Source of the DNA: Patescibacteria group bacterium
GTDB taxonomy: Bacteria; Patescibacteriota; Saccharimonadia; Saccharimonadales; OMJO01
Direction: 5' to 3'
Length of the DNA: 37,917 nt
Assembly: GCA_038064135.1 (NCBI GenBank)
Contig: JBBTTS010000014.1
Coordinates: 2,036 to 39,952 of the forward strand
A program made the translations under genes and the position numbers. Below are positions 4,465-22,605 of the stretch, piece after piece (the stretch's first letter is position 1; every line of letters begins with the position of its first letter). A model generated the notes under the pieces. The model made no database searches. It had not been told where the DNA came from and worked only from the letters and a program-made list of their open reading frames with translations.

Positions 4465-5145
4465 ATGAGAATATTAATTGTAGAAGATGAGCATAAAATT
4501 GCAAACGCCCTAAAACGAGGGCTGGAACAGCAGGCTTTTGCTGCTGATGTTGCATATGATGGCGACGAGGGTTTGTCACTTGCCAATTCAGAACCGTATG
4601 ATCTAATTATTTTAGACAGAATGTTACCGGGATCCATTGACGGCATCGGAATATTAAAAGAACTTCGAGAAAAATCCAATCACATGCCAGTTCTTCTTTT
4701 AACCGCAAAAGACAAAATTTTAGACAAGGCTTACGGCCTAAACAGCGGAGCGGACGACTATTTAGTAAAACCATTTGCCTTTGTTGAATTTATCGCCAGA
4801 GTTCGAGCATTACTGCGAAGACCTAAAGAGGCCGTCGACGACAAACTAGTTTATAAAGAATTAAAACTAAACCTCCAAACAATGCAAGCAAGCCGAAACG
4901 GAAAGTATATTGATTTATCTGTAAAAGAATTTGCACTACTGGAATATTTAATGCGTAACCCCGAAAAGGTAATTAGCAAAAATCAAATTATTGGGCACGT
5001 TTGGAATTATGATGCCGACGTTTTGTTGAATACCGTAGAAGTTTATATCGGTTATTTACGAAAGAAAATAGATAAACCATTTGGTGGTACAAATTATATT
5101 AATACCCGGCGCGGATTTGGTTATATTTTTGGCGAGTCTAAATAA
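4465..5145 (+). CDS. OmpR-family response regulator
   Basis: MRILIVEDE..., receiver Asp in IILDRMLPG, winged-helix C-terminus ...TRRGFGYIF. Confidence 0.95.
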   Translation: MRILIVEDEHKIANALKRGLEQQAFAADVAYDGDEGLSLANSEPYDLIILDRMLPGSIDGIGILKELREKSNHMPVLLLTAKDKILDKAYGLNSGADDYLVKPFAFVEFIARVRALLRRPKEAVDDKLVYKELKLNLQTMQASRNGKYIDLSVKEFALLEYLMRNPEKVISKNQIIGHVWNYDADVLLNTVEVYIGYLRKKIDKPFGGTNYINTRRGFGYIFGESK

Positions 5146-6150
5146 ATGTTCCAGAATACAATTGTAAAACTAACTGGACTGTATCTGGCCATAATTATGA
5201 CTATTAGTTTGTTTTTTAGTGTCGCTGTATATCAATTATCGGTTAGTGAATTTAATCGCGGTTTTCGCATGCACCATGAATACATTCAATCATCCCCTGA
5301 AGTTAGAGCTTTTCCATTTTTACGTCAGCAATTAATTGAGCTTAGACGTCAGGAATTAATTGAAGCAAAAACTAGAGTGCTGCAACGACTCTTCGTAGTA
5401 AATATGCTTATCTTGGCTGGCGGCGGCTATTTAAGCTATATTTTGGCTCGAAAAACACTGGCCCCAATTGAAAAATCTCATCATGAACTTCAAAGATTTA
5501 CAGCAGATGCAAGTCACGAGTTAAGAACGCCACTTGCTGCAATGCGTACCGAAAATGAAGTAGCTTTGATGAATAAGAATCTAAAGCTGAGTGATGCTAA
5601 AGATCAACTAAATAGTAATCTAGCTGAAATAGAGCGGTTATCAAGTTTGACCGACAGATTATTGAGACTAGCAAGGGGCGAAGAATTGTCAAACAAGGAT
5701 TCCGTAAAGTTAATCGAAGTAGTGAATAACGCCCTAATAAATACATCAAGATTGATTAAATCTAAAAACCAAAAAATAATAATCAATATTCCTAAAAACC
5801 AAAAAATTATCGCAAGCGCCGGTGCACTGGCAGACTTAATAACGATTTTGATCGATAACGCTAGTAAATACAGCCCAGAAAAAAAGTCCATAATAATTAG
5901 CAGTAAACAATTCAAACATACTATTGAACTAAGTGTTAAAGATGAGGGAATTGGTATTACGGAACAAGACTTACCAAATATTTTTGAGCGATTTTATAGG
6001 GCTGATATAGCCAGAACAAATACAGATTCCATCGGTTATGGATTAGGATTGTCTATAGCAAGACAAATAGCAGACACGCAGGGAATTTCAATTTTTGTAA
6101 AAACCAGGCCAAAGTTAGGCTCTACTTTTTATCTGCGGATTCCCAACTAA
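5146..6150 (+). CDS. sensor histidine kinase (HisKA + HATPase_c)
   Basis: ATG immediately follows the regulator's stop; H-box FTADASHELRTPL; N box DNASKYS; G boxes DEGIGI and GYGLGLSIA; N-terminal TM segments. Confidence 0.9.
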   Translation: MFQNTIVKLTGLYLAIIMTISLFFSVAVYQLSVSEFNRGFRMHHEYIQSSPEVRAFPFLRQQLIELRRQELIEAKTRVLQRLFVVNMLILAGGGYLSYILARKTLAPIEKSHHELQRFTADASHELRTPLAAMRTENEVALMNKNLKLSDAKDQLNSNLAEIERLSSLTDRLLRLARGEELSNKDSVKLIEVVNNALINTSRLIKSKNQKIIINIPKNQKIIASAGALADLITILIDNASKYSPEKKSIIISSKQFKHTIELSVKDEGIGITEQDLPNIFERFYRADIARTNTDSIGYGLGLSIARQIADTQGISIFVKTRPKLGSTFYLRIPN

Positions 6151-6206
6151 GCAATAAATTAGCCGAGAACGAACGTGCTTGTTATACTTGATAATATAAA
6201 GCGCTT

Positions 6207-6737
6207 ATGAAAAAGGTGATATTACTATTTATCGGACTCGTTTTGTTGATTTTCGGTGGATTTATATATGTTATAAGTTCGACAATCAACACCGATTTAC
6301 CTTCTACAGCATTACCTCCAGCTAGGCTTTATAAAGTTGCCTGCGAAGTATTCACACTTCAAGATGCTAAAATTTTTTCCGAACCAATAATCGAAAAACT
6401 TTCAGCAGGGGGTGCAAATACAATAGCCGACGGTAAAGCCGACACAACATGTAGTTATGGCCTGATTTCTAATACAAAATTTCCACTTAGTATTACAATC
6501 AAACTACATGACTCTACCGCCGAAATTGCAAAAGAAAAATTTCAGCAATCGAAAAGCGCATTTCCAATAACAGTTCAAGATTTAGGGCAAGATGCTCATT
6601 GGCAGACCGATTCAGCCCAGTTAAATGTTTTAAAAGGTCAATACTGGTTAGTGGTAAGTGCTGGGGCAGGTGACCCTAAGTTAAGGCAGATGGATTTACC
6701 GGTTCGAATTGCCCAACACATTTTAAGCAAACTTTAA
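6207..6737 (+). CDS. hypothetical exported protein
   Basis: N-terminal signal/anchor VILLFIGLVLLIFGGFIYVI; no recognisable catalytic motif. Confidence 0.55.
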   Translation: MKKVILLFIGLVLLIFGGFIYVISSTINTDLPSTALPPARLYKVACEVFTLQDAKIFSEPIIEKLSAGGANTIADGKADTTCSYGLISNTKFPLSITIKLHDSTAEIAKEKFQQSKSAFPITVQDLGQDAHWQTDSAQLNVLKGQYWLVVSAGAGDPKLRQMDLPVRIAQHILSKL

Positions 6738-6738
6738 T

Positions 6739-7368
6739 ATGTTAAATTATTCGAAAATTAGTAAAGTACCTAAATATAATTTTTCAGCCGTGTTATTGCT
6801 GGTGGCATTTATAATTTTAATGTTTACTACTGCGCTAGCTGGTTATGTAGGGCGATATGAGTTTGAAGATAAATTTCTTGTCTTTGTTTACAATTGGCCA
6901 ACTTGGCTTAATTCATTTTTCGTAATATTAACTTATGGTGGTAGCATTTTTGCTGCAGCCGGATTAAGTATCTGGCTTTCATTAAGACGATCTTTAATAG
7001 TAATATTTTTTGTTGTTAGCACCGTTGTTACTTATTTCTTGGTAGAGGCTATGAAGCAGGCAATTGCGCGTCCCCGCCCATTCGAAACTTTAGCACCCGA
7101 AATTGTTGCACGCGATTTACAGGCTTACGGATTCGGATTTCCTTCGGGGCATGTAGCAATCAGTGTTGTCATTGCCTACACCTTGCATAGATTGTACCCA
7201 AAAGTATCATGGGCATTTTGGGTTGGATTCGTGACATTTGTTGGGTTATCACGTATATACCTAGGTGTTCACGATTTGTTGGATATTTTAGGAGGCGCTT
7301 CTCTTGCTTTGGTAATATGTGTTGCAGCTGAAATTTTGATAGTAAAATCAAACAAACTTCGTTATTAA
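6739..7368 (+). CDS. PAP2-family phosphatase (undecaprenyl-diphosphatase-type)
   Basis: All three acid-phosphatase motifs are present: KQAIARPRP, PSGH, SRIYLGVHDLLD. Confidence 0.85.
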   Translation: MLNYSKISKVPKYNFSAVLLLVAFIILMFTTALAGYVGRYEFEDKFLVFVYNWPTWLNSFFVILTYGGSIFAAAGLSIWLSLRRSLIVIFFVVSTVVTYFLVEAMKQAIARPRPFETLAPEIVARDLQAYGFGFPSGHVAISVVIAYTLHRLYPKVSWAFWVGFVTFVGLSRIYLGVHDLLDILGGASLALVICVAAEILIVKSNKLRY

Positions 7369-7429
7369 TATCTTGCATTATCATGTTGCCAAGCATATGC
7401 TAAATGGTAGGAAGTGTGAGGCTTCCATT

Positions 7430-7455
7430 AACCCCGGGATTCCCCCGGGGTTTTT
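7430..7455 (+). terminator. rho-independent terminator
   Basis: AACCCCGGG-attcc-CCCGGGGTTTTT: GC stem followed by a T5 run, after the PAP2 gene. Confidence 0.75.
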
Positions 7456-7494
7456 AGGTTGTTTAATATTTTTATTTCATTAAAATCTATAGTA

Positions 7495-8508
7495 ATGGCA
7501 AGTTATTGGCACGTTATTGTGTACTCGATGTTGGGCGGTGTAGTGTCGCTGGTTGGCGGCATACTACTGCTCAGAAGAGAAAAATCGGCCAAGGCTTTAG
7601 CAGAATATGCCACTCCTTTTGCAGCAGGCGCACTGCTAGCAGCAGTGTTTTTAGATCTTTTAAAAGAGGGGGTAAACGATGGTGAGGCAGAGAATGTACT
7701 ACTTGCGGCACTTGGCGGAATTTTGGTGTTTTTTGTTGCAGAACGGTTTCTGCACTGGTTTCACCACCACCACGAACATGAGGGAAAGCTCACTGACCCA
7801 ACAACAGGGTTAATTGTGTTGGGTGACACACTTCATAACGCGCTAGATGGCGTGGCAATTGCCGCAGCATTTTTGATTAGCGTTCCAACTGGAATTGTTA
7901 CAACTCTGGCAGTAGCTGCGCACGAAATTCCACAAGAAATTGGCGACTTTGGCTTGCTTCTGCATAAAGGCATGTCTCGTAACAAAGTTTTATTGGTTAA
8001 TATTATCAGTGCGCTTGCTACAACCTTTATGGCAGTGATCACTTTTGCACTCGGTAGCACCGAGTCATTACCAAATGGAATATTGTTAGGCGTGAGTGCT
8101 GGGTTTTTATTGTACATTGCAATGAGCGACATCATCCCTTCTATTCATGAAAACGCGCCCAAAAAAAAGCTTCTAGACTGGCAACCAATATTGCTGATAA
8201 TTGGCGTGGTAGTTGTAGGGTTGATGATAAATGTTACCCACAAATATATTGACGTTGGTCACGGCGGCGCAACCTCGAATCAGCTGATCGATGTCGGTGG
8301 TGGCTATACATGTCCAGCCGAAACCGAGAGAGTACTTGAAAGCTTTCCGCCACAGTGCGGGCTGCGAGATGGCACGATTGTGCCAGCGCAAAAAAGCAGA
8401 ATTCCAGATTTGTTTAATATTTGCACAAATGGTCAATGCAATCAAATCGAAGACGAAAAAGCTGGTATTTGCCAAATCGGCCCCAGCAGCCCCTGCAACG
8501 CCGAGTAG
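7495..8508 (+). CDS. ZIP-family metal transporter (ZupT-like) with Cys-rich C-terminal extension
   Basis: ZIP signature HEIPQEIGDFGLL, His-rich loop HWFHHHHEHEG. The ATG at 7495 is preferred over the TTG at 7459, which abuts the terminator. The last ~70 aa contain 6 Cys beyond the final TM. Confidence 0.85.
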   Translation: MASYWHVIVYSMLGGVVSLVGGILLLRREKSAKALAEYATPFAAGALLAAVFLDLLKEGVNDGEAENVLLAALGGILVFFVAERFLHWFHHHHEHEGKLTDPTTGLIVLGDTLHNALDGVAIAAAFLISVPTGIVTTLAVAAHEIPQEIGDFGLLLHKGMSRNKVLLVNIISALATTFMAVITFALGSTESLPNGILLGVSAGFLLYIAMSDIIPSIHENAPKKKLLDWQPILLIIGVVVVGLMINVTHKYIDVGHGGATSNQLIDVGGGYTCPAETERVLESFPPQCGLRDGTIVPAQKSRIPDLFNICTNGQCNQIEDEKAGICQIGPSSPCNAE

Positions 8509-8626
8509 ACTTAGCGATATTCAATATTACATTGTTAACGTACAACTATAAAAACCTACAGGTTATTAAAATTGTATAGAATTTATAAGGGTTATGCAGA
8601 CGGTTAAGCCAGTTATCAGTGTTAGC

Positions 8627-8635
8627 TGGTATAAT
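8627..8635 (+). promoter_or_regulatory. extended -10 box TGGTATAAT, 6 nt upstream of the rmuC ATG
   Basis: TGnTATAAT read directly; no SD between the box and the ATG at 8642. Confidence 0.45.
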
Positions 8636-8641
8636 TAATGT

Positions 8642-9703
8642 ATGCTAATTGCGATTGTGATTTTGGGGGTTTTGAATGCGTTGCTGCTGTTTTATTTATT
8701 GCGTAAACAAACTCAGCCAAAAGCTGACGAACAGTCGAGCCTTATGCTGAAACAAGATATAACTACGCTAACCGAAAGTGTAACTCTGCTAAAAGACGGA
8801 CTTCACAAACAAATCAATGATAGGCTAGATAAAAGCAATGCTCAGATGTTAAAACAATTTCAAAGCAGCGCCGAGATCATTAAAGACGTTACTCAAAAAC
8901 TCACCAACCTAGAGCGCACAAACCAGCAAGTGGGCGACATTGCTAACGAACTAAAAGGATTGCAAAACGTGCTTGCTAACCCAAAACAGCGTGGAGTGCT
9001 GGGCGAATTTTATCTGGAGCAAATATTGCAAAACCTTTTGCCTGCGGGAACTTACGAGTTGCAGCACAAGCTATCCGACGGTACGATTGTTGATGCCGTG
9101 ATAAAGCTCGATAATAAGCTGCTACCTATTGATAGTAAATTCTCGCTCGAAAACTATAATCGCCTAGTGGTGGCCAAAGCCGAGGAGCGACCAGCGCTCG
9201 AAAAACAGTTCAAAGAAGATCTTAAAAAACGCATCGACGAAACCGCCAAATATATTCAGCCCAAAAAAGGCACTCTTGAGCAAGCCTTAATGTTCATACC
9301 CAGCGAGGCAATATACTATGATCTTTTGGCAAACAAAGTAGGCCAAACAGGTGTAAATGGCCGTGACCTTATGCAATATGCAGCTGTTGAAAAACGCGTG
9401 ACCATTGTCGGGCCAAGTACTTTAAGTGCCATGTTGCAAATTGTCAGCCAAGGCCTCAAAAGTCTAGAAATCCAAAAAGATACCGAAATTATTCGCAACA
9501 ACGTGGAGCAATTGGGTAAGCACCTGCGTGGCTACGAGGGCTACATGCAAAAGCTTGGTAACAGCCTGGGAGCAACCGTGGGGCACTATAACAACGCACA
9601 CAAAGAGTTAAAGCGAGTTGATAAAGACGTGGTCAAAATAGCCGGCGGCAACAGTGAAATGGAGCCATTACTGCTAGACAAGCCAAGGGATGATGTGGAG
9701 TAA
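8642..9703 (+). CDS. rmuC: DNA recombination protein RmuC
   Basis: N-terminal TM, long coiled region, family-typical NPKQRGVLGEFYLEQIL and LMFIPSEA segments. Confidence 0.9.
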   Translation: MLIAIVILGVLNALLLFYLLRKQTQPKADEQSSLMLKQDITTLTESVTLLKDGLHKQINDRLDKSNAQMLKQFQSSAEIIKDVTQKLTNLERTNQQVGDIANELKGLQNVLANPKQRGVLGEFYLEQILQNLLPAGTYELQHKLSDGTIVDAVIKLDNKLLPIDSKFSLENYNRLVVAKAEERPALEKQFKEDLKKRIDETAKYIQPKKGTLEQALMFIPSEAIYYDLLANKVGQTGVNGRDLMQYAAVEKRVTIVGPSTLSAMLQIVSQGLKSLEIQKDTEIIRNNVEQLGKHLRGYEGYMQKLGNSLGATVGHYNNAHKELKRVDKDVVKIAGGNSEMEPLLLDKPRDDVE

Positions 9704-10343
9704 AATGCCAAAAATTACCAACGGAACTAAAAAACCAACCCTGCCCAAAATCTTGAGTATTAAATGGTTTAGTGTGTTACTAATTATCGTAGGAATTGTA
9801 GGTATTGTTGCCTCAGTGCAACTGACCATCGACAAAATCCATGTTTTAAAAGACCCAAGCTTTGATCCGGCTTGTAATATAAATCCAATATTTAGCTGTG
9901 GCTCGGTGATGAAAACCGCGCAAGCCGAAATCCGTGGCGTTCCTAATACACTTGTTGGATTAGCTACATTTCCAATTCTAATAACTATTGGTGCTGTAAT
10001 GTTGTTTGGTGCACGAATGAATCGCAGATTTTGGCAATTATTCCAGCTGGGAGTGCTGGGTGGACTAGGCATGGTAATTTATCTATTTTTTCAGGGTGTT
10101 TACCGCATAAACGCGCTATGTATTTACTGCGTAGCAACCTGGGTAGCAATTTTGCCTTTGGTTTGGTACACGACACTTTGGAATCTTTCAAACGGTCATA
10201 TTGTGTTAACAAAGAAATATCAAAAAGCGAAAGATTGGGTAATTACGCACCACGGAGATGTTATTTTGGTCGTGTACATAGGATTGGCAGTGGCAATCTT
10301 GGAACATTTTTGGTACTATTTTGGCCCACTACTCGGATTCTAA
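9690..10343 (+). CDS. vitamin K epoxide reductase (VKOR) family protein
   Basis: Loop Cys pair CNINPIFSC and TM-embedded CIYC redox motif in a 4-5 TM protein; overlaps the rmuC end by 14 nt. Confidence 0.8.
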   Translation: MMWSKMPKITNGTKKPTLPKILSIKWFSVLLIIVGIVGIVASVQLTIDKIHVLKDPSFDPACNINPIFSCGSVMKTAQAEIRGVPNTLVGLATFPILITIGAVMLFGARMNRRFWQLFQLGVLGGLGMVIYLFFQGVYRINALCIYCVATWVAILPLVWYTTLWNLSNGHIVLTKKYQKAKDWVITHHGDVILVVYIGLAVAILEHFWYYFGPLLGF

Positions 10344-10347
10344 ATAC

Positions 10348-14272: not shown

Positions 14273-14281
14273 TGATATAAT
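14273..14281 (+). promoter_or_regulatory. extended -10 box TGATATAAT, 10 nt upstream of the pheS ATG
   Basis: TGnTATAAT read directly; a second TATAAT lies ~15 nt further upstream; no SD before the ATG at 14292. Confidence 0.45.
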
Positions 14282-14291
14282 TGACTTCGAC

Positions 14292-15317
14292 ATGTCTTAT
14301 CAAAATGCCAAAATTGCTGAAGTTGGCCAGCAACTCATGGGGCGCATAACAACCGAAGGAAAGGCTGTACTGCGAAGTCCAGTATTTAGAGCGTTGTTTG
14401 GAGAGTTAAAAACGCTACCCCCAGAGCAGAGGGGCAGTTTTGGTAAAGAGCTCAATCAGCTAAAAAATGAGTTAGAAGTAGCCGTTAAATCAGCGACAAA
14501 TCCTGAGCAAGCCCTTCCACCTATCGATGTAACGGCACCATTTGATATTAATGTGTCTGCCGATAGACGCCCAAGCCTTTTGCCAACGCAGCAAGGCAGC
14601 CGCCATCCACTATTGACCGAACTGGACACCATACTCGACATTTATAATCGCATGGGTTTTACAGCGATAGAGTCGAGGCAGTTAGACGACGACTATCATA
14701 TGTTTGCCAGCCTTAACTTTCCCGAGGGACACCCTGCGCGCGACGATTTTGACACTTTTATGACCGAAGAAGGTTTAATTGCGCCGGCTCACACTAGCAC
14801 CATGCAAAACCGCGTGTTAGTACAACACAGAGCCAACCTAGAGCAAGGCGAACCAATCGCCGTTGTTATTCCAGGTCGTGTTTTCCGTAACGAAGATATC
14901 GACGTTACGCATGAGCATACATTTTATCAGCTGGAGGGCGTATACGTCGGTAAAGGCATAAATGTTGGAAACCTCATCGCAACTCTAAAAGCCTTTATGA
15001 GCGAGTATTTTGGCCAAGAGTTGAACGCTAAACTGCAGCCGTTTTATTTTCCGTTTACCGAGCCTAGTTTTGAGTTTGCCATAGAACGGCCAGAGATTTT
15101 GCGTCGCGGCAATACCGAGGCGGATATGTGGTTAGAGCTTTTAGGTTGCGGCATGATCCACCCCAATGTGTTGAAAGAGGCTGACATCGACCCTAACATT
15201 TATACTGGATTTGCTTGGGGCGGTGGCATAGAGCGCTTAGTGATGATGAAAAACCAAATAGAAGACATCCGCCATTTCGAAAGCGGTAAACTAGACTTCC
15301 TGAGGCAATTCAAATGA
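14292..15317 (+). CDS. pheS: phenylalanine--tRNA ligase alpha subunit
   Basis: Class II aaRS motifs: HPARD, FRNEDIDVTHEHTFYQLEG, GFAWGGGIERL. Confidence 0.97.
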   Translation: MSYQNAKIAEVGQQLMGRITTEGKAVLRSPVFRALFGELKTLPPEQRGSFGKELNQLKNELEVAVKSATNPEQALPPIDVTAPFDINVSADRRPSLLPTQQGSRHPLLTELDTILDIYNRMGFTAIESRQLDDDYHMFASLNFPEGHPARDDFDTFMTEEGLIAPAHTSTMQNRVLVQHRANLEQGEPIAVVIPGRVFRNEDIDVTHEHTFYQLEGVYVGKGINVGNLIATLKAFMSEYFGQELNAKLQPFYFPFTEPSFEFAIERPEILRRGNTEADMWLELLGCGMIHPNVLKEADIDPNIYTGFAWGGGIERLVMMKNQIEDIRHFESGKLDFLRQFK

Positions 15318-15319
15318 AA
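15301..15319 (+). repeat. junction repeat copy 1: TGAGGCAATTCAAATGAAA
   Basis: pheS 3' end (..LRQFK*) overlapping the next ATG as ATGA. Confidence 0.9.
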
Positions 15320-15652
15320 ATTGTTGAGAAAATATCGGTAGCGGAGCTCGAAGAAATGGCTCAAAAAATGGATGGAAACTTGGTAAAAGCCGATGTGGAC
15401 GTAGTTAAAAAAATAGTGATTATCGATATGCCTATGCACTTTGAGGGTGAGCAAGAGTTATTAAAAGATGGTTCTAAGCAGAAGGATCTTTGGGGAATCA
15501 ACTTGTTGCCAGCGAAGTATGGTACGGATGATTTTATTGTTTATAACTCGATGATAAACATTAAGCCTCTTGTAAATCCAAGTATGAGTGTTTTATCAGA
15601 AGATATTCGCCAACAGATAAAATCGATCATCAAAGAGGTTGTCCATGAGTAA
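15314..15652 (+). CDS. small hypothetical protein (resembles CPR-enriched DUF5674-type proteins, from memory)
   Basis: ATGA overlap with the pheS stop; 112 aa; GSKQKDLWGINLLP...YNSMINIKP segment. Confidence 0.6.
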   Translation: MKIVEKISVAELEEMAQKMDGNLVKADVDVVKKIVIIDMPMHFEGEQELLKDGSKQKDLWGINLLPAKYGTDDFIVYNSMINIKPLVNPSMSVLSEDIRQQIKSIIKEVVHE

Positions 15653-15959
15653 CTACCACACAAATTCATTGAAGAATGCTGACGTATTTACAGTTATGGG
15701 CTCTGTGTACGCCGAGGTGGCTCGATACGATTCTGCAATAGGAGCCGATCAAGCCGATCAAGCCGATCAAGCGATTTTAAGAGCAATGGAACTGATTGAT
15801 TTTTCTCAAAACTTAAATACATTAAACGCTGCCCAAAAGATGGAAATTGATAGGTTTGGATCGCTATTGAAAGACCGAGCTAAGTTGCGAGAGAATAGTA
15901 ACTTTGATGACTATCTAATGCCATTTGCGTTGGCGGCGAGAATGAGGCAATTCAAATGA
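15645..15959 (+). CDS. small hypothetical protein with ADQADQADQ repeat
   Basis: ATG at 15645 with AAAGAGG 6 nt upstream (the track starts at the TTG at 15639); overlaps the previous stop; ends ..MRQFK* inside junction repeat copy 2. Confidence 0.5.
   Translation: MSNYHTNSLKNADVFTVMGSVYAEVARYDSAIGADQADQADQAILRAMELIDFSQNLNTLNAAQKMEIDRFGSLLKDRAKLRENSNFDDYLMPFALAARMRQFK
15744..15770 (+). repeat. perfect 9-bp x3 tandem repeat GCCGATCAA
   Basis: Read directly; in-frame, encodes ADQADQADQ. Confidence 0.9.
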
Positions 15960-15961
15960 AA
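15943..15961 (+). repeat. junction repeat copy 2: TGAGGCAATTCAAATGAAA
   Basis: Identical 19-mer; identity extends to 20 nt (ATGAGG...) with copy 3. Confidence 0.9.
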
Positions 15962-16300
15962 GTTGTAAAAAGAAGTACCAATGATATCCAAAAAGAGGAG
16001 GCTCATGGTGGGAGCGGTGCCAGAAAAGTGTACGCGTCACCCGATCATCTAAAGAGCGCGCATTTTGAAATGATGACTCACGGATATTTACCAGCAGGTA
16101 AAACTTTTGATTGGCATGAGCACGTGGATACGGAGGAAATCATGGTTGTATTAAAAGGTATTGGTGAAGTTCACGATAAAGATGGTCAATATTCTTACGA
16201 GGCTGGTGACGTTTTTGTTTTTCCGACTAACACGCAGCACAAGATTCACAACCCCAGCAGCGAACAGCACGAAATGATATTTGTCAGGGTAAAAGTATGA
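15956..16300 (+). CDS. cupin-domain protein
   Basis: Cupin motifs WHEHVDTEE(x)VVLKG and GDVFVFPTNTQHKIHN. Confidence 0.8.
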   Translation: MKVVKRSTNDIQKEEAHGGSGARKVYASPDHLKSAHFEMMTHGYLPAGKTFDWHEHVDTEEIMVVLKGIGEVHDKDGQYSYEAGDVFVFPTNTQHKIHNPSSEQHEMIFVRVKV

Positions 16301-16316
16301 GGCAATTCAAATGAAA
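16298..16316 (+). repeat. junction repeat copy 3: TGAGGCAATTCAAATGAAA
   Basis: Identical 19-mer. Here its TGA is the cupin stop, and GAGG sits 8 nt before the ATG at 16311. Confidence 0.9.
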
Positions 16317-16976
16317 ACCGCAATTATTACTGGAGCAAGTGATGGAATCGGGGCTGCAATAGCCGAAAGATTGAGCTCAGACCATCAACTAATTCTTTGT
16401 GGACGTGATGAAGAAAAGTTAAAAGTGGTTAGTGAAAAGTGTGGTAACGCAAAATATTTTGCTTTTGATGTGAACAATGCAAAGCAACGAAATGATTTTT
16501 TTGATCAAGTTTCAAAAGTTGATACGTTAATAAACAATGCAGGTGTGTGGCACAAAGTTGGTGATCTAGAAACACTGAGTGATGAGAAAATTTTAGAGGT
16601 ACTCAATACTAATTTAGTCGCTCAGATACTTATTACCAGAGGGCTTTTACTAAAACTCAAAGAGTCTGTCGAAGGGGCAATTATAAATATAATTTCAAAG
16701 TCCGGTATTGTCGCACAAGCTGGCCAGTCCGTTTATACCGCTAGCAAATACGGGATGCGTGGTTTTACGGACGTCCTAAGGCAAGATTTAAAAGAATCCA
16801 GTATCCGTGTGGGAGCAGTATTTCAATCCGGCACAAACACTCAAATGTTTGCTAAAGCGGGCGATGAGTTTGCGGTAGAAACCTTTACGGAACCGAAGGA
16901 TCTTGCGGAGGTAGTAGCATTTATGCTAAGCCGTCCTGAAAAGTTATGGATAAATGAAGTCATGGTAGAGAAATGA
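16311..16976 (+). CDS. short-chain dehydrogenase/reductase (SDR)
   Basis: TGASDGIG cofactor motif, NNAG, catalytic YTASK. Confidence 0.9.
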   Translation: MKTAIITGASDGIGAAIAERLSSDHQLILCGRDEEKLKVVSEKCGNAKYFAFDVNNAKQRNDFFDQVSKVDTLINNAGVWHKVGDLETLSDEKILEVLNTNLVAQILITRGLLLKLKESVEGAIINIISKSGIVAQAGQSVYTASKYGMRGFTDVLRQDLKESSIRVGAVFQSGTNTQMFAKAGDEFAVETFTEPKDLAEVVAFMLSRPEKLWINEVMVEK

Positions 16977-19486
16977 AAGTTAGTTTAAACTGGGCGCAGT
17001 TTTATAGCAATGTCGATTTGAAGAGTATTGGCAAAGATGAGCTTTTGAAGCGTATCGGCGCACAACTTGGGGCTGTTGAAGATGTTGTAGAGTGGGGGCC
17101 GCGATACGACGGTATTGTGGTTGCTAAAGTTATCTCTTGCGAAAAACACCAGGCGGCCGACAAATTAAGCGTTTGTCGGATTGACGACGGTGGAGCCGTG
17201 CAAGACGTAGAGCGTGGCGACGACGGACTGGTGCAAGTTGTATGTGGTGCACCGAAGGTGGCTGAAGGCATGACCGTAGCGTGGATACCACCCGGAACCG
17301 TAGTGCCAAGCACCATCGACAAAGATCCGTTTACGCTAGAAGTTCGCGAAATTCGCGGCGCTAAAAGTAACGGCATGTTAGCCAGCGCGAGCGAGCTGGG
17401 CATCAGCGATAACCACGATGGCATACTAGAAATCAAAGAATCCGACGTGCTCACACCCGACCTTATGACTCTCGGAACGCCTTTTAAACAATTGTATGGC
17501 CTAGATGACGTGGTGTTTGACCTTGAGAACAAGATGTTTACCCACCGCCCAGACTGCTTTGGCATCTTGGGTGTAGCACGTGAGCTAGCAGGTATTTGCG
17601 GGCTGCAATTCAAATCACCAGATTGGTATACGCAGCCGATTACAATCGAATCAACAAGCCAACTTCCCTTTTCTTCAAGAAATGAAATACCAGAACTAGT
17701 ACCGCGTTTTATGGCACAAGTTGTCGAAGGCATACAAATTACCCAGAGTCCAACTTGGATGCTAGCCAGCTTTACAAGGACAGGGCTAAAACCAATTAAC
17801 AACATAGTGGATAGGTCTAACTATTACATGCAGTTAACGGCTCAACCGACCCACGCTTTTGACTACGACAAGGTCAAAGCGTTGTGTGGCGAACAAGTAA
17901 CAATCTTTCCGCGCTTAGCTAACGACGGAGAAGAGATAAAGCTTCTTGGAGGCAAAACTATAAAGCTAACCAACGAAGACATTGTGATTGCCACCGACAA
18001 ACAGGCAATCGCCTTGGCTGGTGTCATGGGTGGTGCCGAAACTGAGGTGGACGAAAACACCAAGAATATCATCATTGAGTGCGCCACATTTGATATGTAC
18101 GCCATTCGTCGTACCAGTATGCGCCATGGGCTATTTACCGACGCCGTTACTCGGTTTAACAAGGGTCAGAGCCCACTACAAAACCATGTTGTGTTAGCAA
18201 AACTGGTGAGCAACATGGTTAAGCATGCAGAAGGCAAGGCTGGCGAAGTTTACGATTCTAACCCAGACATCAAGCCCATGCCAGTAGTTAGCGTATCTAC
18301 AGAATTTATCAACCAAAGACTAGGCTCGTCTCTGACTACCGACGAAATAGCAGAAATGCTTCGCCGCGTTGAGTTCGAAGTGGGCCCAGAACTAGAAGTT
18401 AGTCCGCCATTTTGGCGCAGAGATATCGAGTTTCCGGAAGATATAGTAGAAGAAATTGGAAGGTTGTACGGCTACGATAAACTACCAGTGGCTTTGCCTC
18501 CTCGTGGCAGCAAGCCCGCAATTAAGTACGAGTTGTTAGAAAACAAGAAGCGACTTCGAAAGTTGCTGGCTGCTGCAGGCGCCAACGAAGTACTGACTTA
18601 TAGTTTTGTCCACGAAAACCTAATGCAAAAAGTTGGCCAAAATAAAGAAAATGCCTACCATGTCCGTAACGCCATAAGCCCCGATTTGCAGTATTACCGC
18701 ATGAGTCTGATGCCCAGCTTGCTCGACAAAGTTAATATGAATATTAGAGCTGGGTACGAGGAATTTGCTTTGTTTGAAATGAACAAAGTTCACAATAAAG
18801 ATCTGACCGAAGATGATTTGCCTATAGAAGAAAACCGCCTAGCGTTAGTCATTGCGGTTGACGACAAGGCTGCCAAGGCTAAAGCCGGAGCTGCATTTTA
18901 TCAGGCCAGACTCTACTTAGAGTGCGTTGCCCAGGCTTTTGGGGTTGAGTTAATCTATGAGCCAGCAACCACTCACGAACCCAAAATGGAAATCGGTAAG
19001 GCTGCAGTGGCACCGTTCGAACCACGGCGCAGTGCATATGTAAAAACTGTTGACGGTGAGTTGATAGCCGAATTGGGCGAATTCAAATCAACCACGCGCC
19101 AAAACCTTAAGCTTCCTTCATACACAGCTGGATTTGAGCTAGATATTGACCGGCTAATCGCACACGCCAAAAATCCGGTATACACCCCGCTTCCAAGATT
19201 TCCTAAGGTCGAACAAGATATAAGCCTACGGGTAAATAATGATGTCGCATTTGCTGATCTGCAAAGCTGTGTCGAGCAGGCTGTTATCGACCTGCAACCA
19301 GATCACAGCATTACATATGTCAACCCACTCGATATATATCAGAAAGCAGGCGAACCAGACAAACAAATTGCTTTTCGAATGAGTATCGCAAACTACCAGC
19401 GCACATTGACCTCTGAGGAAGTGAACACCTTGCTAGATAAGGCAGCCGAAGCGGCTAAGCAACAATTTGGTGCGGAGCGTATCTAG
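16973..19486 (+). CDS. pheT: phenylalanine--tRNA ligase beta subunit
   Basis: 837 aa; N-terminal tRNA-binding fold, B3/4 and B5 regions, C-terminal FDX-ACB-like end; ATGA overlap with the SDR stop. Confidence 0.97.
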   Translation: MKVSLNWAQFYSNVDLKSIGKDELLKRIGAQLGAVEDVVEWGPRYDGIVVAKVISCEKHQAADKLSVCRIDDGGAVQDVERGDDGLVQVVCGAPKVAEGMTVAWIPPGTVVPSTIDKDPFTLEVREIRGAKSNGMLASASELGISDNHDGILEIKESDVLTPDLMTLGTPFKQLYGLDDVVFDLENKMFTHRPDCFGILGVARELAGICGLQFKSPDWYTQPITIESTSQLPFSSRNEIPELVPRFMAQVVEGIQITQSPTWMLASFTRTGLKPINNIVDRSNYYMQLTAQPTHAFDYDKVKALCGEQVTIFPRLANDGEEIKLLGGKTIKLTNEDIVIATDKQAIALAGVMGGAETEVDENTKNIIIECATFDMYAIRRTSMRHGLFTDAVTRFNKGQSPLQNHVVLAKLVSNMVKHAEGKAGEVYDSNPDIKPMPVVSVSTEFINQRLGSSLTTDEIAEMLRRVEFEVGPELEVSPPFWRRDIEFPEDIVEEIGRLYGYDKLPVALPPRGSKPAIKYELLENKKRLRKLLAAAGANEVLTYSFVHENLMQKVGQNKENAYHVRNAISPDLQYYRMSLMPSLLDKVNMNIRAGYEEFALFEMNKVHNKDLTEDDLPIEENRLALVIAVDDKAAKAKAGAAFYQARLYLECVAQAFGVELIYEPATTHEPKMEIGKAAVAPFEPRRSAYVKTVDGELIAELGEFKSTTRQNLKLPSYTAGFELDIDRLIAHAKNPVYTPLPRFPKVEQDISLRVNNDVAFADLQSCVEQAVIDLQPDHSITYVNPLDIYQKAGEPDKQIAFRMSIANYQRTLTSEEVNTLLDKAAEAAKQQFGAERI

Positions 19487-19487
19487 C

Positions 19488-21248
19488 GTGATTCGGCTGC
19501 GTTGGCTTGCTTCGCTGGCGCTACTCGTAAGCTTTTTACTAACACCGTTGGTTGCTAGTGCAGATCTGCAAGATTTCACCATTACCAACTTCGATGCCGA
19601 CTATACACTGACCACAGAAGATCCCCAAGGGCTGTTAATAGTCAAAGAGCGTATCGACGTAGTTTTTACCAATAATAATCATGGGATTGAGCGGGCTCTA
19701 CCAGATAAGTATAAGGGCAAAAAACAGAACATTAGTAATATTCAAGCCTCCAAGGCAGACGGCAGTGCTTGGCCATTTAGCACCTACACTACCAATGATA
19801 ACTTGGTAATACGAATTGGCGACCCAAATCAGACAGTAACTGGCCCGCAAACATTTATAATTAACTACCAACAAGAGAATGTAATTAGTTTTTATGATGA
19901 CCACGATGAACTTTATTGGGACATTAACGGCGACCAATGGGCACAGCCCTTTACTAAAGTCACTGCAAACTTCCATTTGCCCACCGCAGTAAAATTAAAC
20001 CAGACCAAATGCTTTGCCGGCAAGTACGGCGAAAGTTCGCAGCAATGTAGTGTTTCAAAAACAAGTGACGGTATAAAAGTCGAAACGCTAAGAGCACTCC
20101 AGCCATACGAAACCTTGACTGGGTTAATTAGCATACAAAAAGGCAGTTTTGCCCAACCAACTAGGGTTGATTGGCTGAAAGAAAACCTCAAAAATATATT
20201 ATCGTTTTTGGCGTTGCCGATACTAGTTTTATTGCCTAGTTTTCGGTATTGGTATAAAAATGGCAAAGATTCAAAAGGTCGAGGCGTTATTGTTTCTCAG
20301 TATGACGCACCTGACAAATTGCGACCAGCAGAAGTTGGGACATTAGTTGATTACCGAGTAGACAACAGAGATATATCGGCAACAATTATAGACCTAGCAA
20401 TACGCAAATATTTAAAGATTATTGAAACCAAAAAAGATAGATTTTTGTTAAAAGACAAGTTGACATACGAGTTTGAGCTAATAAATCCAAGTACCACAGG
20501 ACTAAAAAGCTATGAACGAGATATTTTATGGGGAATATTCGGCGCCAAAACCGAAGTTGACATCCAGGTGGGTCAAATAGTCAACGTCAATGATTTAAAG
20601 GGCAAGATGTACAAAGTCATTCAGGAAGTCCGAGAAACGGTTAGTTTGTCTTTGGCTCAAGAAGGATATTTTAATGGAAGCCCCCTTAGGGTGGCTGGAA
20701 AGCTTTTTCTTGTCGTAACTGCTGTAGTCATCTCATTATTTGTTTTTGGCGCTATTTTGGGAATATGGTATGTTTTTGGCGGTTTAATAACCACGGCGTT
20801 CTTGATAATCTTTGCAATGTTGATGCCCAAAAGAACCGAAAAAGGAGTGATGGCAAAAGAACATATTGAAGGTCTGAAGCTATATTTGTCAGTTGCCGAA
20901 AAAGAAAGATTAAAGATGCTTCAGAGCCCGGATTCTCCCTACGCAAAAAAATCTTTAGGGCCGAAGCGAACCGTAGAATTATTCGAGAAATTGTTGCCAT
21001 TCGCCGTAGCCCTAGGCGTAGAAAACGCTTGGGCAAAACAGTTTGAAGACATCTACAAATCACCTCCTGATTGGTATAGCGGAAATTGGACTACCTTTAA
21101 TGCGTTGGTTTTTGCCAACAGTTTGTCGACCTCGTTAAATACAATGGGTGCTAATTTTTCACCACCAAGTAACTCTGGCAGCAGTGGATTTTCGGGTGGC
21201 GGAGGCTTCTCCGGCGGTGGTGGTGGAGGTGGTGGTGGTGGCTGGTAG
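19488..21248 (+). CDS. DUF2207-domain membrane protein with poly-Gly C-terminus
   Basis: The GTG at 19488 gives a signal peptide IRLRWLASLALLVSFLLTPLVASA (the track's GTG at 19467 overlaps pheT). Large exported domain, TM cluster, and a C-terminal SGSSGFSGGGGFSGGGGGGGGGGW typical of DUF2207. Confidence 0.8.
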   Translation: MIRLRWLASLALLVSFLLTPLVASADLQDFTITNFDADYTLTTEDPQGLLIVKERIDVVFTNNNHGIERALPDKYKGKKQNISNIQASKADGSAWPFSTYTTNDNLVIRIGDPNQTVTGPQTFIINYQQENVISFYDDHDELYWDINGDQWAQPFTKVTANFHLPTAVKLNQTKCFAGKYGESSQQCSVSKTSDGIKVETLRALQPYETLTGLISIQKGSFAQPTRVDWLKENLKNILSFLALPILVLLPSFRYWYKNGKDSKGRGVIVSQYDAPDKLRPAEVGTLVDYRVDNRDISATIIDLAIRKYLKIIETKKDRFLLKDKLTYEFELINPSTTGLKSYERDILWGIFGAKTEVDIQVGQIVNVNDLKGKMYKVIQEVRETVSLSLAQEGYFNGSPLRVAGKLFLVVTAVVISLFVFGAILGIWYVFGGLITTAFLIIFAMLMPKRTEKGVMAKEHIEGLKLYLSVAEKERLKMLQSPDSPYAKKSLGPKRTVELFEKLLPFAVALGVENAWAKQFEDIYKSPPDWYSGNWTTFNALVFANSLSTSLNTMGANFSPPSNSGSSGFSGGGGFSGGGGGGGGGGW

Positions 21249-21943: not shown

Positions 21944-22096
21944 GGTCATCGTAATTGTGGTTGAGTTTAATTCGATTCCCCTGTTACGAACGTTGACAGA
22001 TGAAGAAACTACCCATTGAAAATGTTCCATGGGACGGTGCTGTTTGAAAATATAAAGTAGTTAAACAATACCGTCTCTATGATGAGGCAAATTTCA

Positions 22097-22175
22097 CGGG
22101 TAGAGCCAAAGTATCTGGGTTGCGGGCGCGACACTTGATATGGTTGGTAAGTTGGTTCGATTCCAGCCTACCCGA
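22097..22175 (+). ncRNA. tRNA-like element (acceptor stem, D-arm-like and T-arm intact; no anticodon arm)
   Basis: CGGGTAG/CTACCCG perfect 7-bp acceptor plus A73; T-arm GTTGG-TTCGATT-CCAGC; D-like GCCA-AAGTATCTGGG-TTGC. The 27 nt where the anticodon arm should be has no 5-bp/7-nt-loop solution. Confidence 0.45.
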
Positions 22176-22192
22176 CGAAGGGGTATTGGATT

Positions 22193-22214
22193 AGCAAAAA
22201 AGACGTTTTTTGCT
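22193..22214. terminator. A6/T6 hairpin AGCAAAAAA-GACG-TTTTTTGCT (weak, possibly bidirectional terminator)
   Basis: 9-bp perfect stem read directly, 18 nt after the tRNA-like element. Confidence 0.35.
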
Positions 22215-22223
22215 TCTTCAAAA

Positions 22224-22486
22224 CCCTTCGGGGGAGTATCGGACCAATACGGGTCCCCACCTCGCCGAGGTTCGATACTCCCACCTTCGCGGAGTGCTTG
22301 ACAAATCGTTATTACGGTTCACGCCCCCCTTTCGTGGATCGGTGGTCGTCAAGCACTCCGCATTAAACCGGCCCCCCAAAGAGCCGGAAACTGGGGAGCG
22401 GGGAGCGCCAAGCAAATCAACCTAAGCATTGGGCTGGAATGCAAAGGTTGGAGTAGCTTTGGCTGCCCCCCGCTTCCCTTCGAATA
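22224..22486 (+). ncRNA. unassigned GC-rich structured RNA: four consecutive helices with 5-7 nt linkers
   Basis: H1 22232-22241/22273-22282 (10 bp perfect, encloses GGACC/GGTCC). H2 22290-22302/22348-22360 (13 bp perfect) plus an inner 9-bp stem with loop CCCCCCTTT. H3 22368-22372/22383-22387. H4 22393-22478 (an 86-nt hairpin). Four G-U pairs on the plus strand would be A-C mismatches on the minus strand. Confidence 0.5.
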
Positions 22487-22605
22487 GGACAACCATTTTG
22501 CCCTTTAACGGCTAAATAAATCTTCATCTGTCCTTCTCTCTTAGCGTATTTAATTAAGTACTCTGAGCCAGAAGAAATTAAATTAACATGTTAAGCTTAA
22601 TTTAA

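Follow-up and report, generated by a model that had tools for sequence, protein, structure and literature searches.

The pheS/pheT overlap of Saccharimonadales as a recurrent insertion site for small co-oriented genes, with copies of the coupling junction at some cassette boundaries

The junction between pheS and pheT, the genes for the two subunits of phenylalanyl-tRNA synthetase, is a recurrent insertion hotspot with variable cassettes in Saccharimonadales, and the 19-mer that is repeated at the locus described here is the junction at which pheS and pheT ancestrally overlapped in this group. In the window, by which we mean the whole 37.9-kb stretch of DNA that was analyzed, pheS and pheT, which usually overlap, are parted by four small accessory genes (Table 1). 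We consider it on balance probable that cassettes turn over at this site by homologous and microhomology-mediated recombination, with selection keeping a Shine-Dalgarno/start module before each gene through to the essential pheT.

The gene calls, the junction distances and the three exact repeats reported in the initial annotation were all borne out by the sequence. The five junctions from pheS to pheT are spaced by -4, -8, -4, +10, and -4 nt, and TGAGGCAATTCAAATGAAA occurs exactly three times on the plus strand (15301-15319, 15943-15961, and 16298-16316). No further match was found in the window with up to three mismatches allowed; at the same threshold shuffled sequence gave a mean of 0.02 matches, and three matches were reached in 0/100 shuffles. 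Copies 2 and 3 have 20 nt in common (ATGAGGCAATTCAAATGAAA, at 15942 and 16297), and the cupin and pheT genes share a start sequence, ATGAAAGTT. HMM searches placed three of the four inserted ORFs in Pfam families. The fourth, ORF2, is predicted to form a four-helix bundle, and its AF2 model (pLDDT 91) had no significant match in the PDB. Judged by its position, the TATAAT box upstream of pheS is the likely -10 element of a near-leaderless pheS operon transcript; the same geometry recurs 5' of pheS in relatives and 5' of other genes in the window, and a consensus promoter scan found no promoter excess within the insert.

Table 1. Features of the pheS-pheT locus in the window
Feature	Position	Strand	Remarks
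TATAAT box	14276..14281	+	10 nt 5' of the pheS ATG; read in sequence
pheS (phenylalanyl-tRNA synthetase alpha subunit)	14292..15317	+	PF01409 E=3e-72; C-terminus ..DFLRQFK*
Module copy 1 (J1), native pheS 3' end	15301..15319	+	(C)TG AGG CAA TTC AAA TGA
DUF5674 gene, 112 aa	15314..15652	+	PF18924 E=2e-22
ORF2, 104 aa	15645..15959	+	no Pfam family
Module copy 2 (J2), ATGAGGCAATTCAAATGAAA	15942..15961	+	ORF2 coding tail MRQFK* and cupin Shine-Dalgarno/start
Cupin_2 gene, 114 aa	15956..16300	+	PF07883
Module copy 3 (J3), ATGAGGCAATTCAAATGAAA	16297..16316	+	TGA is the cupin stop; rest intergenic, non-coding
SDR (short-chain dehydrogenase/reductase) gene, 221 aa	16311..16976	+	PF00106 E=2e-43
SDR stop/pheT start ATGA overlap, AAATGAAAGTT	16971..16981	+	read in sequence
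pheT (phenylalanyl-tRNA synthetase beta subunit)	16973..19486	+	PF03483, PF17759, PF03484, PF03147, PF01588

In each module the GAGG Shine-Dalgarno sits in what is, in coding copies, an Arg codon, and in copies 1 and 2 an ATGA stop/start overlap closes the unit. Copy 1 encodes the PheS C-terminus (..LRQFK*) and its ATGA overlaps the DUF5674 start, while copy 2 encodes the ORF2 tail (..MRQFK*) with an ATGA overlap with the cupin start. Copy 3 is a non-coding relic that serves as the ribosome-binding site of the SDR gene, to which it gives GAGG, an 8-nt spacer, and ATG. Direct repeats bracket both the cupin gene (20 nt; left arm J2, right arm J3) and the DUF5674-ORF2 pair (19 nt). That the 19-mer is the ancestral coupling junction, as had been supposed, was confirmed in relatives: in several of them, including L036, L039, L050, and L046 (where pheS is coupled straight to pheT via CTGAGGCAATTCAAATGAAAATTAGC), the J1 sequence joins pheS to pheT with no gene between, and the consensus [CT]TGAGGCA[AG]TT[CT]NNATGA is present in the 35/74 species-level loci with pheS and pheT ≤5 nt apart. 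The module is not a general initiation cassette, since in ~1.07 Mb of loci searched additional plus-strand copies lie only within pheS-pheT gaps. The pheS and ORF2 tails differ by 4.67 mismatches within genomes and 6.37 between genomes (permutation p=0.012, from a small sample, n=15), with an exact match in the window and L088 and one mismatch in L095 and L089; the demands of the PheS C-terminus, Shine-Dalgarno, and spacing may largely account for copies 1 and 2 being identical.

About 100 related loci were surveyed, and insert states were counted on 74 species-representative relatives, the counts covering the pheS-pheT junction alone. PheS is 56-80% identical to the pheS products of 80+ Saccharibacteria loci. 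The overlap is retained in 35/74 species and inserts are present in 36/74, loci with and without an insert are interleaved in PheS clustering, and close relatives differ in which cassettes they carry. The 36 inserts, of 153-4223 bp, hold 1-7 co-oriented small genes, mostly overlapping enzyme genes (PNPOx, alpha/beta-hydrolase, HIT, SDR, GDSL, NUDIX, and others), with 81 plus-strand ORFs and 5 minus-strand ones that are probably shadow ORFs, coding coverage of ~100%, and overlap at 94/117 junctions. The slot 3' of ORF2 alone is occupied by at least nine different genes in 15 loci: in the window the order is ..ORF2-cupin-SDR-pheT, in L089 ..ORF2-47aa-149aa-pheT, in L085 ..ORF2-NUDIX-(cupin relic)-pheT, and in L086 pheS-126aa-DUF5674-ORF2-GNAT-cupin-pheT. 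Serial capture at the pheS-pheT junction, the original interpretation, therefore stands as far as a recurrent insertion site is concerned, but not in its claim that each capture duplicated the junction. A second copy of a locus's own 20-nt junction within the gap (≤4 mismatches) was found in 0/80 GTDB loci, and since most relatives' insertions lack a duplicated junction, duplication is not the rule of the process.

Nor are the four genes four recent captures, for DUF5674, ORF2, and SDR have long occupied the gap, and do so in many lineages. DUF5674 is the first half of a conserved DUF5674-ORF2 pair, and its orthologues (65-80% identity) lie directly 3' of pheS in L043, L061, L062, L065, L085-L089, and L092-L101. 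The last 5-6 codons of ORF2 duplicate the pheS tail, the C-terminus YLMPFAxAARMRQF[KS] is common to 24 ORF2 homologues (54-100% identity), and in the minimal loci L095 and L098 this tail is coupled straight to pheT. Copy 2 is an old coding tail that the ORF2 family as a whole conserves. SDR orthologues lie directly 5' of pheT in L090, L092, and L093 (58-72% identity) and also within the gap in L043, L059, and L094 (61-68%); in L091 one gene, SerHyd, lies between SDR and pheT. The SDR-pheT joint, at which the pheT start was initially noted to share sequence with the copy-2 ORF start, is not a full copy of the module: it is an ordinary ATGA overlap that is conserved in L090 (GAAAAATGAAAGTA) and L092. 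The cupin has 332 homologues across Saccharibacteria (72-82% identity), which sit at other genomic sites in tight arrays of different genes, and in L086 it lies directly 5' of pheT. The window and L086 cupins align as far as GTAAAA(GT/AC)ATGA and diverge beyond, and by this alignment the breakpoint falls exactly at ATGA. No relative was found in the direct pre-insertion state, in which ORF2, the module, and SDR would follow one another with no cupin.

Comparable scars occur in other gaps. L089 has a third module copy, TTATGAGGCAATTCAAATGAAG, which is non-coding (position 6454), the upstream stop lying within ATGAGG. L091 has a non-coding copy 5' of the Ser-hydrolase gene (position 813), another before the SDR gene (position 116), where it forms the in-frame end, KRQSK*, of an upstream ORF, and a weak relic 5' of pheT (15/21 matches). 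In L085 the last ~36 nt of the cupin gene, with GTGAGG and ATGA, are kept as the pheT ribosome-binding site.

We propose that the pheS/pheT overlap acts as a recombination hotspot at which small promoterless genes, always co-oriented and nearly always with ATGA-type joints, would be gained, swapped, and lost. The 19-mer doubles as the PheS tail (LRQFK*) and as the Shine-Dalgarno, spacer, and ATG of whichever gene comes next, and because the pheS tail is the ribosome-binding site of the downstream gene, duplicating the overlap can spare both genes; by the other route, the insert would supply a different Shine-Dalgarno. Module copies would be the scars left by insertions, copy 2 that of an old DUF5674-ORF2 insertion, later fixed as the ORF2 coding tail, and copy 3 a non-coding scar from the joining of the cupin before an SDR gene already bearing the module. 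The native ends of the cupin are ATGAAA... and ...ATGA, with the joint placed at the (A)TGA microhomology. The likely process would be natural transformation, or else recombination within the genome, with homology in pheS, ORF2, or pheT as the anchor and one illegitimate microhomology joint (homology-facilitated illegitimate recombination, HFIR), after which selection for pheT expression would sieve the outcomes; recombination between copies, now and then, may hold them alike. In Saccharibacteria comEC-dependent natural transformation is documented (PMC10633639), and HFIR uses microhomology of 3-10 bp (PMC6382021). Because the inserts are co-oriented, promoterless, and ATGA-joined, we infer, together with this recombination pathway, that they form a transcription unit with pheST and are translated by coupling.

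A different account is that of an old, vertically inherited operon, in which relatives differ by losses only and the 19-mers reflect purifying selection for the best Shine-Dalgarno/spacer/start and for the PheS-like tail, not recombination at the junction. The long residence of three of the genes and the conserved ORF2 tail agree with it, as does the native composition of the cassettes, whose GC falls inside the normal range of the window, and even the SDR of L091, only 71% identical, is preceded by a module matching at 20/22. Moreover, cassette identities follow those of the flanking genes (in L086 79% for DUF5674, 78% for ORF2, and 82% for the cupin vs 80% for PheS; in L090 72% for SDR vs 74% for PheT), and therefore vertical inheritance from an ancestral operon with more genes, followed by differential loss, fits as well as gain does. 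We nevertheless regard losses only as rather unlikely. Copy 3 is non-coding and still matches copy 2 at 20/20, although selection for GAGG-N8-ATG leaves eight spacer bases free and the sequences upstream of other window genes are quite different. The variety of genes in the post-ORF2 slot, the unlike gene orders of L090 and L091, and the location of the cupin elsewhere in most Saccharibacteria genomes also speak against it, and the partial gene relic in L085 is a mark of replacement, beyond mere loss. Gene conversion of copy 3 from copy 1 or 2 over an unrelated SDR ribosome-binding site, with concerted evolution only, would accord with the covariation of pheS and ORF2 tails within genomes, but such a site has no homology for starting conversion, and 19-20 nt does not exceed the shortest length at which homologous pairing is usually efficient. 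As the sequence and spacing upstream of the L090 SDR differ from those in the window and the homology with L086 breaks exactly at ATGA, we find this origin quite improbable.

It is highly improbable that the module is the attachment site of an integron-like site-specific system with its recombinase encoded elsewhere in the genome. The locus does resemble integron arrays (IntI/attI/attC/Pc) in its promoterless, co-oriented single-gene units behind one upstream promoter, in the 19-20-nt repeat at three cassette boundaries (with more boundary copies in L089 and L091), and in content that varies between relatives. However, no integrase or recombinase was found in the 38-kb window, and neither these nor mobility genes were found among the gap genes of the 36 loci; attI and an imperfect-palindrome attC are lacking, and the module is neither palindromic nor structured. 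The repeat is absent from most cassette boundaries of relatives, acts as a ribosome-binding site, and is fully accounted for as the 3' coding end of pheS, an essential gene. The array is seated in an essential operon, that of an aminoacyl-tRNA synthetase. The initial comparison with integrons thus holds for the outcome and fails for the mechanism; the locus is not an integron. That the repeat is an artefact of assembly or annotation is scarcely conceivable, given an identical structure in nine contigs, which come from four or more samples and assemblers, and the strong Pfam support for the ORFs. Across several samples, gene order and the three module copies are unchanged in 9/9 contigs with the exact cupin protein and in 7/7 with the exact PheS protein, and no strain-level polymorphism in order was seen among these contigs.

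The proposed cassette turnover can be set beside several known systems. Comparative-genomic work on HGT hotspots was reportedly carried out by Oliveira and colleagues in 2017. Homologous recombination in flanking DNA maintains integration hotspots bounded by core genes ('genomic islets'), and the present locus is like them in having variable accessory genes between two core genes in many genomes, with exchange that flanking homology can allow and no need of mobility genes. It is unlike them in that the flanks overlap and are translationally coupled subunits of one enzyme, and in that insertions lie on the same strand, precise to the gene and free of spacers, and in some cases leave duplicated junction modules. 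A one-sided homologous anchor with a 3-10 bp microhomology joint, here at (A)TGA, is shared with HFIR in natural transformation (de Vries & Wackernagel 2002; Prudhomme et al. 2002; Meier & Wackernagel 2003; summarized in PMC6382021), as is the natural transformability of the host group (PMC10633639). By contrast, the match at pheS-pheT comes from sequence comparison alone, and because the microhomology is the generic ATGA stop/start overlap, selection after the event could mimic the same picture. Direct repeats flanking an insert (20 nt for the cupin, 19 nt for DUF5674-ORF2) recall transposon target-site duplications, but they are far longer than is typical, neither a transposase nor terminal inverted repeats accompany them, and what was inserted is a unit of precisely one ORF. 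With classical ATGA/TAATG translational coupling the locus shares a GAGG 8 nt 5' of an ATG that overlaps the upstream TGA; it departs from it in that one coupling module recurs, identical to the base, at three joints in a row, serving at one of them as coding tail of an unrelated protein and at another as non-coding DNA.

The pheS and pheT genes in the window are separated by four co-oriented genes that are packed end to end, with joints from pheS through pheT of -4, -8, -4, +10, and -4 nt, and the string TGAGGCAATTCAAATGAAA occurs exactly three times along this array. The initial annotation had described both the copies and the gene order accurately, and their positions and joints were reproduced here. 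No further copy was found in the 37.9 kb with up to three mismatches, for which shuffled sequence gives a mean of 0.02 matches to the 19-mer, and copies 2 and 3 have 20 nt in common. Gene order and copies were unchanged in all contigs with the exact cupin protein (nine) and in all with the exact PheS protein (seven), and since several samples and assemblers agree on this structure it is not an artefact; no strain-level polymorphism was found among these contigs, which were obtained from Hainich groundwater. All 80 loci recovered with the window PheS (56-78% identity) come from Saccharibacteria (TM7, Saccharimonadales), which is thus the group of the window.

Features of the pheS-pheT array and its surroundings in the window
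Feature	Position	Strand
pheS	14292-15317	+
DUF5674 gene	15314-15652	+
ORF2 (104 aa)	15645-15959	+
DUF5674-ORF2 pair	15314-15959	
cupin_2 gene	15956-16300	+
SDR (short-chain dehydrogenase) gene	16311-16976	+
pheT	16973-19486	+
Module copy 1	15301	
Module copy 2	15943	
Module copy 3	16298	
Tandem repeat inside ORF2	15743-15772	
DUF2207 membrane protein gene	19467-21248	
Region without ORF of at least 100 aa	21249-22605	

On comparison with relatives, the repeated module is the 3' end of pheS, coding for the conserved PheS C-terminus LRQFK*, because the direct pheS/pheT joints of related loci carry the 19-mer. Specifically, where the two genes overlap in relatives the junction reads [CT]TG AGG CA[AG] TT[CT] NNA TGA, with the second pheT codon next, and the direct joint of one of them (L046), CTGAGGCAATTCAAATGAAAATTAGC, contains the 19-mer of the window. 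The module ends in an ATGA stop/start overlap and places GAGG 8 nt before the next ATG. As read from the sequence, this coupled-gene geometry is present at each copy, copies 1 and 2 having the ATGA overlap and copy 3 a gap of 10 nt, and the Shine-Dalgarno/start-overlap arrangement of the window joints matches that of translationally coupled overlapping genes. The 51-nt segments around the copies are no more structured on either strand than shuffled sequence (z -0.02 to +1.35), no inverted repeats were found at the junctions, and no Rfam family was found within or near the insert. Across some 1.07 Mb of related loci, additional plus-strand copies of the motif are confined to pheS-pheT gaps and the remaining matches are just two loose ones on the minus strand; hence neither there nor in the window is the 19-mer a general translation-initiation cassette, the outcome that would have spoken against the initial annotation. 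A phage link was also considered and rejected, as the eight exact matches in IMG/VR fall in three unrelated coding contexts and are at chance level.

The comparison of relatives proposed in the initial annotation shows that the gap is occupied in many species and that close relatives differ by single genes. Among 74 species-representative genomes with pheS and pheT on one contig, the two genes are ≤5 nt apart in 35, are separated by 36-111 nt in three, and enclose inserts of 153-4223 bp in 36. The inserts are tiled to about 100% by 81 ORFs on the plus strand, with five on the minus strand that are probably shadow ORFs. Joints overlap in 94 of 117 cases, mostly by 4 nt, and a further eight are spaced by 0-15 nt; in 29 of the 36 loci the first inserted gene has taken over the overlap with pheS. 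The 81 gap ORFs represent 38 Pfam families, including PNPOx-like proteins (10), alpha/beta-hydrolases (10), HIT (9), SDR (8), GDSL lipases (5), Ser-hydrolases (4), asparaginase (3), and DUF5674 (3), with NUDIX, ADH, and others also among the cargo. When the genomes are ordered by PheS similarity, those with and those without an insert are intermixed, which argues for many independent changes. The pheS/pheT gap therefore resembles a core-gene-flanked integration hotspot, in which the same conserved pair encloses content that varies between genomes. The short spacers of three loci (L025, 36 nt; L060, 111 nt; L066, 61 nt) are non-coding and may be scars of imprecise cassette loss. One 3.1-kb insert (L069) has as its first gene after pheS a T5orf172/MUG113 (GIY-YIG-like) domain protein (7999-8625), the sole nuclease-like or mobile-element-like gene seen among the gaps.

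Content of the pheS-pheT gap in the window and its close relatives
Locus	Gene order
Window	pheS - DUF5674 - ORF2 - cupin - SDR - pheT
L086 (PheS 80%)	pheS - 126 aa - DUF5674 - ORF2 - GNAT - cupin - pheT
L085	pheS - 126 aa - DUF5674 - ORF2 - NUDIX - 36-nt cupin 3' relic - pheT
L089	pheS - DUF5674 - ORF2 - 47 aa - 149 aa - pheT
L088	pheS - DUF5674 - ORF2 - 54 aa - ...
L092/L093	pheS - DUF5674 - ORF2 - alpha/beta-hydrolase - SDR - pheT
L090 (PheS fragment 92%)	pheS - spacer - Ser-hydrolase - SDR - pheT
L091	... - SDR - Ser-hydrolase - pheT (order of L090 reversed)
L095, L098	... - DUF5674 - ORF2 - pheT

From the gene orders of the close relatives, the DUF5674-ORF2 pair and the pheT-adjacent SDR are long-standing residents. 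The slot behind ORF2 is highly variable, with at least nine different genes in 15 loci. The SDRs of L090 and L091 are each about 71-72% identical to that of the window, yet the order of Ser-hydrolase and SDR is opposite in the two, and copies of the junction module precede both genes in L091 only, not in L090. The 149-aa gene of L089 was compared with the 126-aa gene after pheS in L085 and L086 as a possible case of a gene that moved with its module, and the two are not homologous.

Copy 2 of the module is, by comparison with its homologues, old and now protein-coding. YLMPFAxAARMRQF[KS], or a sequence close to it, forms the C-terminus of all 24 ORF2 homologues (54-100% identity), and in L098 the ORF2 tail CTGAGGCAGTTCAAATGAAGGTTAGT continues straight into pheT (MKVS), reproducing the ancestral pheS/pheT junction. 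In the simplest reading, the founding DUF5674-ORF2 insertion would have duplicated the junction, and the last five or six pheS codons would then have become the C-terminus of ORF2. The predicted ORF2 structure is a four-helix bundle (pLDDT 91) in which this tail forms a helix end within the bundle; the model is of a generic kind and gave no significant fold match among PDB structures. The window and L088 each have identical pheS and ORF2 tails (both ..TTCTCATGA in the latter), and a single mismatch separates the two tails in L095 (both ..TTCGCATGA) and in L089. Over 17 nt, the two tails differ by a mean of 4.67 mismatches within a genome versus 6.37 between genomes (permutation p=0.012, n=15), which, for a small sample of a strongly constrained sequence, hints at concerted evolution or at repeated re-creation of the repeat. 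The DUF5674 and ORF2 genes, which overlap by 8 nt, are a conserved pair located exclusively next to pheS at every locus seen (L043, L062, L085-L089, L092-L101), and a functional link to PheRS is conceivable. Neither protein has an NCBIfam match or a PDB sequence match that would indicate its function, the single-sequence structure model of DUF5674 (pLDDT 40) is too poor for use, and a metagenome scan with an ORF2 profile returned eight loci. The window ORF2 also contains a 9-nt tandem repeat, AGCCGATCA x3, that encodes ADQADQADQ, where its homologues have a single, non-repeated loop.

Copy 3, as judged from the cupin 3' end, is a non-coding relic. The cupin genes of the window and L086 align up to GTAAAA(GT/AC)ATGA, past which L086 runs into pheT and the window runs GGCAATTCAAATG into the SDR gene. 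With module copies on both sides, the cupin gene therefore lies between the arms of a 20-nt direct repeat. At other loci (L086, L111, L112, L069) the native ends of the gene are ATGAA(A/G)... and ...ATGA, which correspond to the module's right and left ends. The cupin is widespread and well conserved in Saccharibacteria (332 matches, 72-82% identity) and occurs in other genomes without the module, in other tight arrays with the same kinds of small enzymes. In one such genome (L111; 1772-3535 on the minus strand and 5001-10345) a cupin orthologue heads a tight array of cupin-NUDIX fusion, HD, hydrolase-APH, and methyltransferase, and the opposite strand carries, at a distance of about 1.5 kb, a gene for a 587-aa serine recombinase (Resolvase). 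Further module-like tails are found in the relatives. L089 has TTATGAGGCAATTCAAATGAAG behind its 47-aa ORF, the stop of which falls within ATGAGG, and this is identical at 19 of 19 positions to its own pheS tail, its own ORF2 tail having diverged. In L091, AAGAGGCAATCCAAATGAAAAC precedes an SDR 71% identical to that of the window and is the in-frame tail KRQSK* of an upstream ORF, and an intergenic TTGAGGCAATTTGTATG precedes the Ser-hydrolase gene. L085 retains the last ~36 nt of the cupin gene (EYEMIFVRIKK*, with GTGAGG and ATGA) behind its NUDIX gene, a clear example of cassette replacement in which the tail of the previous gene was left behind. This remnant would serve as the ribosome-binding site of pheT, supplying the Shine-Dalgarno and ATGA by the same principle as copy 3 with a different tail; the NUDIX gene itself enters the remnant and ends at an out-of-frame TGA there (2535-2590). 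The SDR-pheT joint of the window is an ordinary old overlap.

We now put forward a mechanism for the growth of the array. At this joint the same bases serve pheS and the gene that follows it, which limits the options for insertion. An insertion would keep pheS intact and the downstream genes, ultimately the essential pheT, translated only by duplicating the module or by bringing another Shine-Dalgarno, and examples of either kind occur. The pathway we infer is homology-facilitated illegitimate recombination (HFIR), with which a breakpoint at (A)TGA, partial tails left in place, and conservation on one side only are consistent. In HFIR a homologous anchor combines with a joint of 3-10 bp microhomology (PMC6382021); here the anchor would be pheS, ORF2, or pheT. 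The pathway would call for RecA and a naturally transformable host. DNA uptake and recombination dependent on comEC have been described in other Saccharibacteria (PMC10633639); the organism of the window is uncultured. It should be noted that the homology between the window and L086 ends at ATGA as expected of such a joint, and that selection for stop/start overlaps could mimic the same picture. Recombination between direct repeats of the module would in turn excise the intervening genes precisely and restore a perfect pheS/pheT overlap, which could account for the patchy distribution of DUF5674-ORF2. Thus, the core intuition of the initial annotation, that accumulating cassettes reuse the ancestral coupling junction, was right, whereas its four serial captures that each duplicate the junction are too simple, as most insertions in relatives leave no duplicate. 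Two duplications stand, one ancient and coding and one a relic flanking the cupin gene; the SDR-pheT joint does not belong with them. Indeed, no gap of the GTDB relatives contains a second copy of that relative's own 20-nt junction, so junction duplication is not general, and a search of the gaps for pheT 5' relics at ≤5 mismatches gave none, the candidate in L091 matching at only 15 of 21 positions.

Three other origins have to be weighed against this mechanism. The array has been likened to an integron, in which promoterless cassettes of one orientation are read from a single upstream promoter; the window genes are all co-oriented, with joints of -8 to +10 nt. Integrons are marked by an adjacent IntI-type tyrosine recombinase and by attC sites, imperfect inverted repeats that form hairpins at cassette 3' ends. 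Among the ~40 window ORFs, Pfam scans revealed neither an integrase or recombinase nor a transposase, and no integrase or transposase belongs to the 25 commonest of the 38 Pfam families in the 81 gap ORFs of 36 relatives. The module copies have no counterpart of attC hairpins; lacking an attC-like structure, and with no integrase in the window, the array is not an integron. Inside the insert, promoter-like and terminator-like sites show no excess over shuffled background. The direct repeats could also recall the target-site duplication of a transposon, which is short and of fixed length and accompanies a transposase and terminal inverted repeats. In the window the duplications are 19-20 nt and there is neither a transposase nor terminal inverted repeats, and a transposon footprint was rejected. 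Differential loss from a richer ancestral operon is a different matter. The GC content of the cassettes is inside the normal range of the window, and a foreign composition was rejected. The identities of the cassette proteins also parallel those of the flanks, so that differential loss stays a serious candidate explanation of some of the pattern. We rate the locus as a core-flanked recombination hotspot with putative microhomology joints, which would make it a variant of known hotspots. It is possible, if rather unlikely, that Saccharibacteria more broadly shuffle whole genes among coupled operons via ATGA joints and the pheS-tail module with no dedicated recombinase. The generic ATGA overlap and, at this locus, the longer pheS-tail module would then be both a recombination joint and a portable Shine-Dalgarno/start adapter, and the module copies, instead of being passive scars, would actively take part as substrates in excision, re-insertion, and gene conversion. 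Since the first genes of operons often appear leaderless in these genomes, an essential operon such as pheST would provide expression for accessory enzymes and act as their nursery. In a more general form of the idea, CPR genomes as a whole would shuffle ATGA-bounded genes among coupled operons.

Recognizable mobile elements are few in the tiny genomes of Saccharibacteria and other CPR bacteria, and for this reason the gain and reshuffling of their accessory genes are poorly understood. In about half of the sampled species, one to seven unrelated small-enzyme genes lie between the subunit genes of an essential enzyme with gene-precise overlaps, which points to a recombinase-free gene gain in which transcription and translation are obtained for free. 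The duplicated junction shows how an overlap is resolved upon insertion, one copy becoming the coding tail of ORF2 and another a bare ribosome-binding site. The pheS tail may offer a predictable site and sequence context for expressing inserted genes in Saccharibacteria, which are naturally transformable and have recently become tractable, and a 'broken' pheST operon should be regarded as normal in Saccharibacteria when they are annotated. Our literature searches found no papers combining pheS, pheT, and Saccharibacteria, no description of the hotspot, and no papers mentioning DUF5674.

Other features of the window were observed alongside the array. A TATAAT-like box lies 6-12 nt ahead of the ATG of many first genes, which lack a Shine-Dalgarno, as at 14276-14281 and upstream of 8642, 10876 (minus strand), 12202 (minus strand), 13331, and 33807 (minus strand), and the same geometry is found upstream of pheS in five relatives (L001, L021, L044, L061, L062). 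This arrangement suggests leaderless or near-leaderless mRNAs for these genes; internal operon genes instead have a Shine-Dalgarno located inside the upstream gene. The 1.36-kb region without a sizeable ORF, between the DUF2207 and ABC-transporter genes, stands out especially at 22080-22520; it has GC-rich patches (0.53-0.58), T-loop-like GGUUCGAUUCC motifs, and an extremely stable predicted RNA fold of -196.9 kcal/mol (z=-7.1 on the plus strand, z=-7.0 on the minus strand). No Rfam family reaches its gathering score here, and the standard ARAGORN scan calls neither a tRNA nor a tmRNA; candidate tRNAs with introns of 168-392 nt are called in relaxed intron mode only. The region may represent an undescribed structured RNA or intron-bearing tRNA genes. 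The DUF2207 gene, which encodes a membrane protein with the poly-glycine tail GGGGFSGGGGGGGGGGW, directly follows pheT in the window and is found behind pheT in many, not all, relatives.
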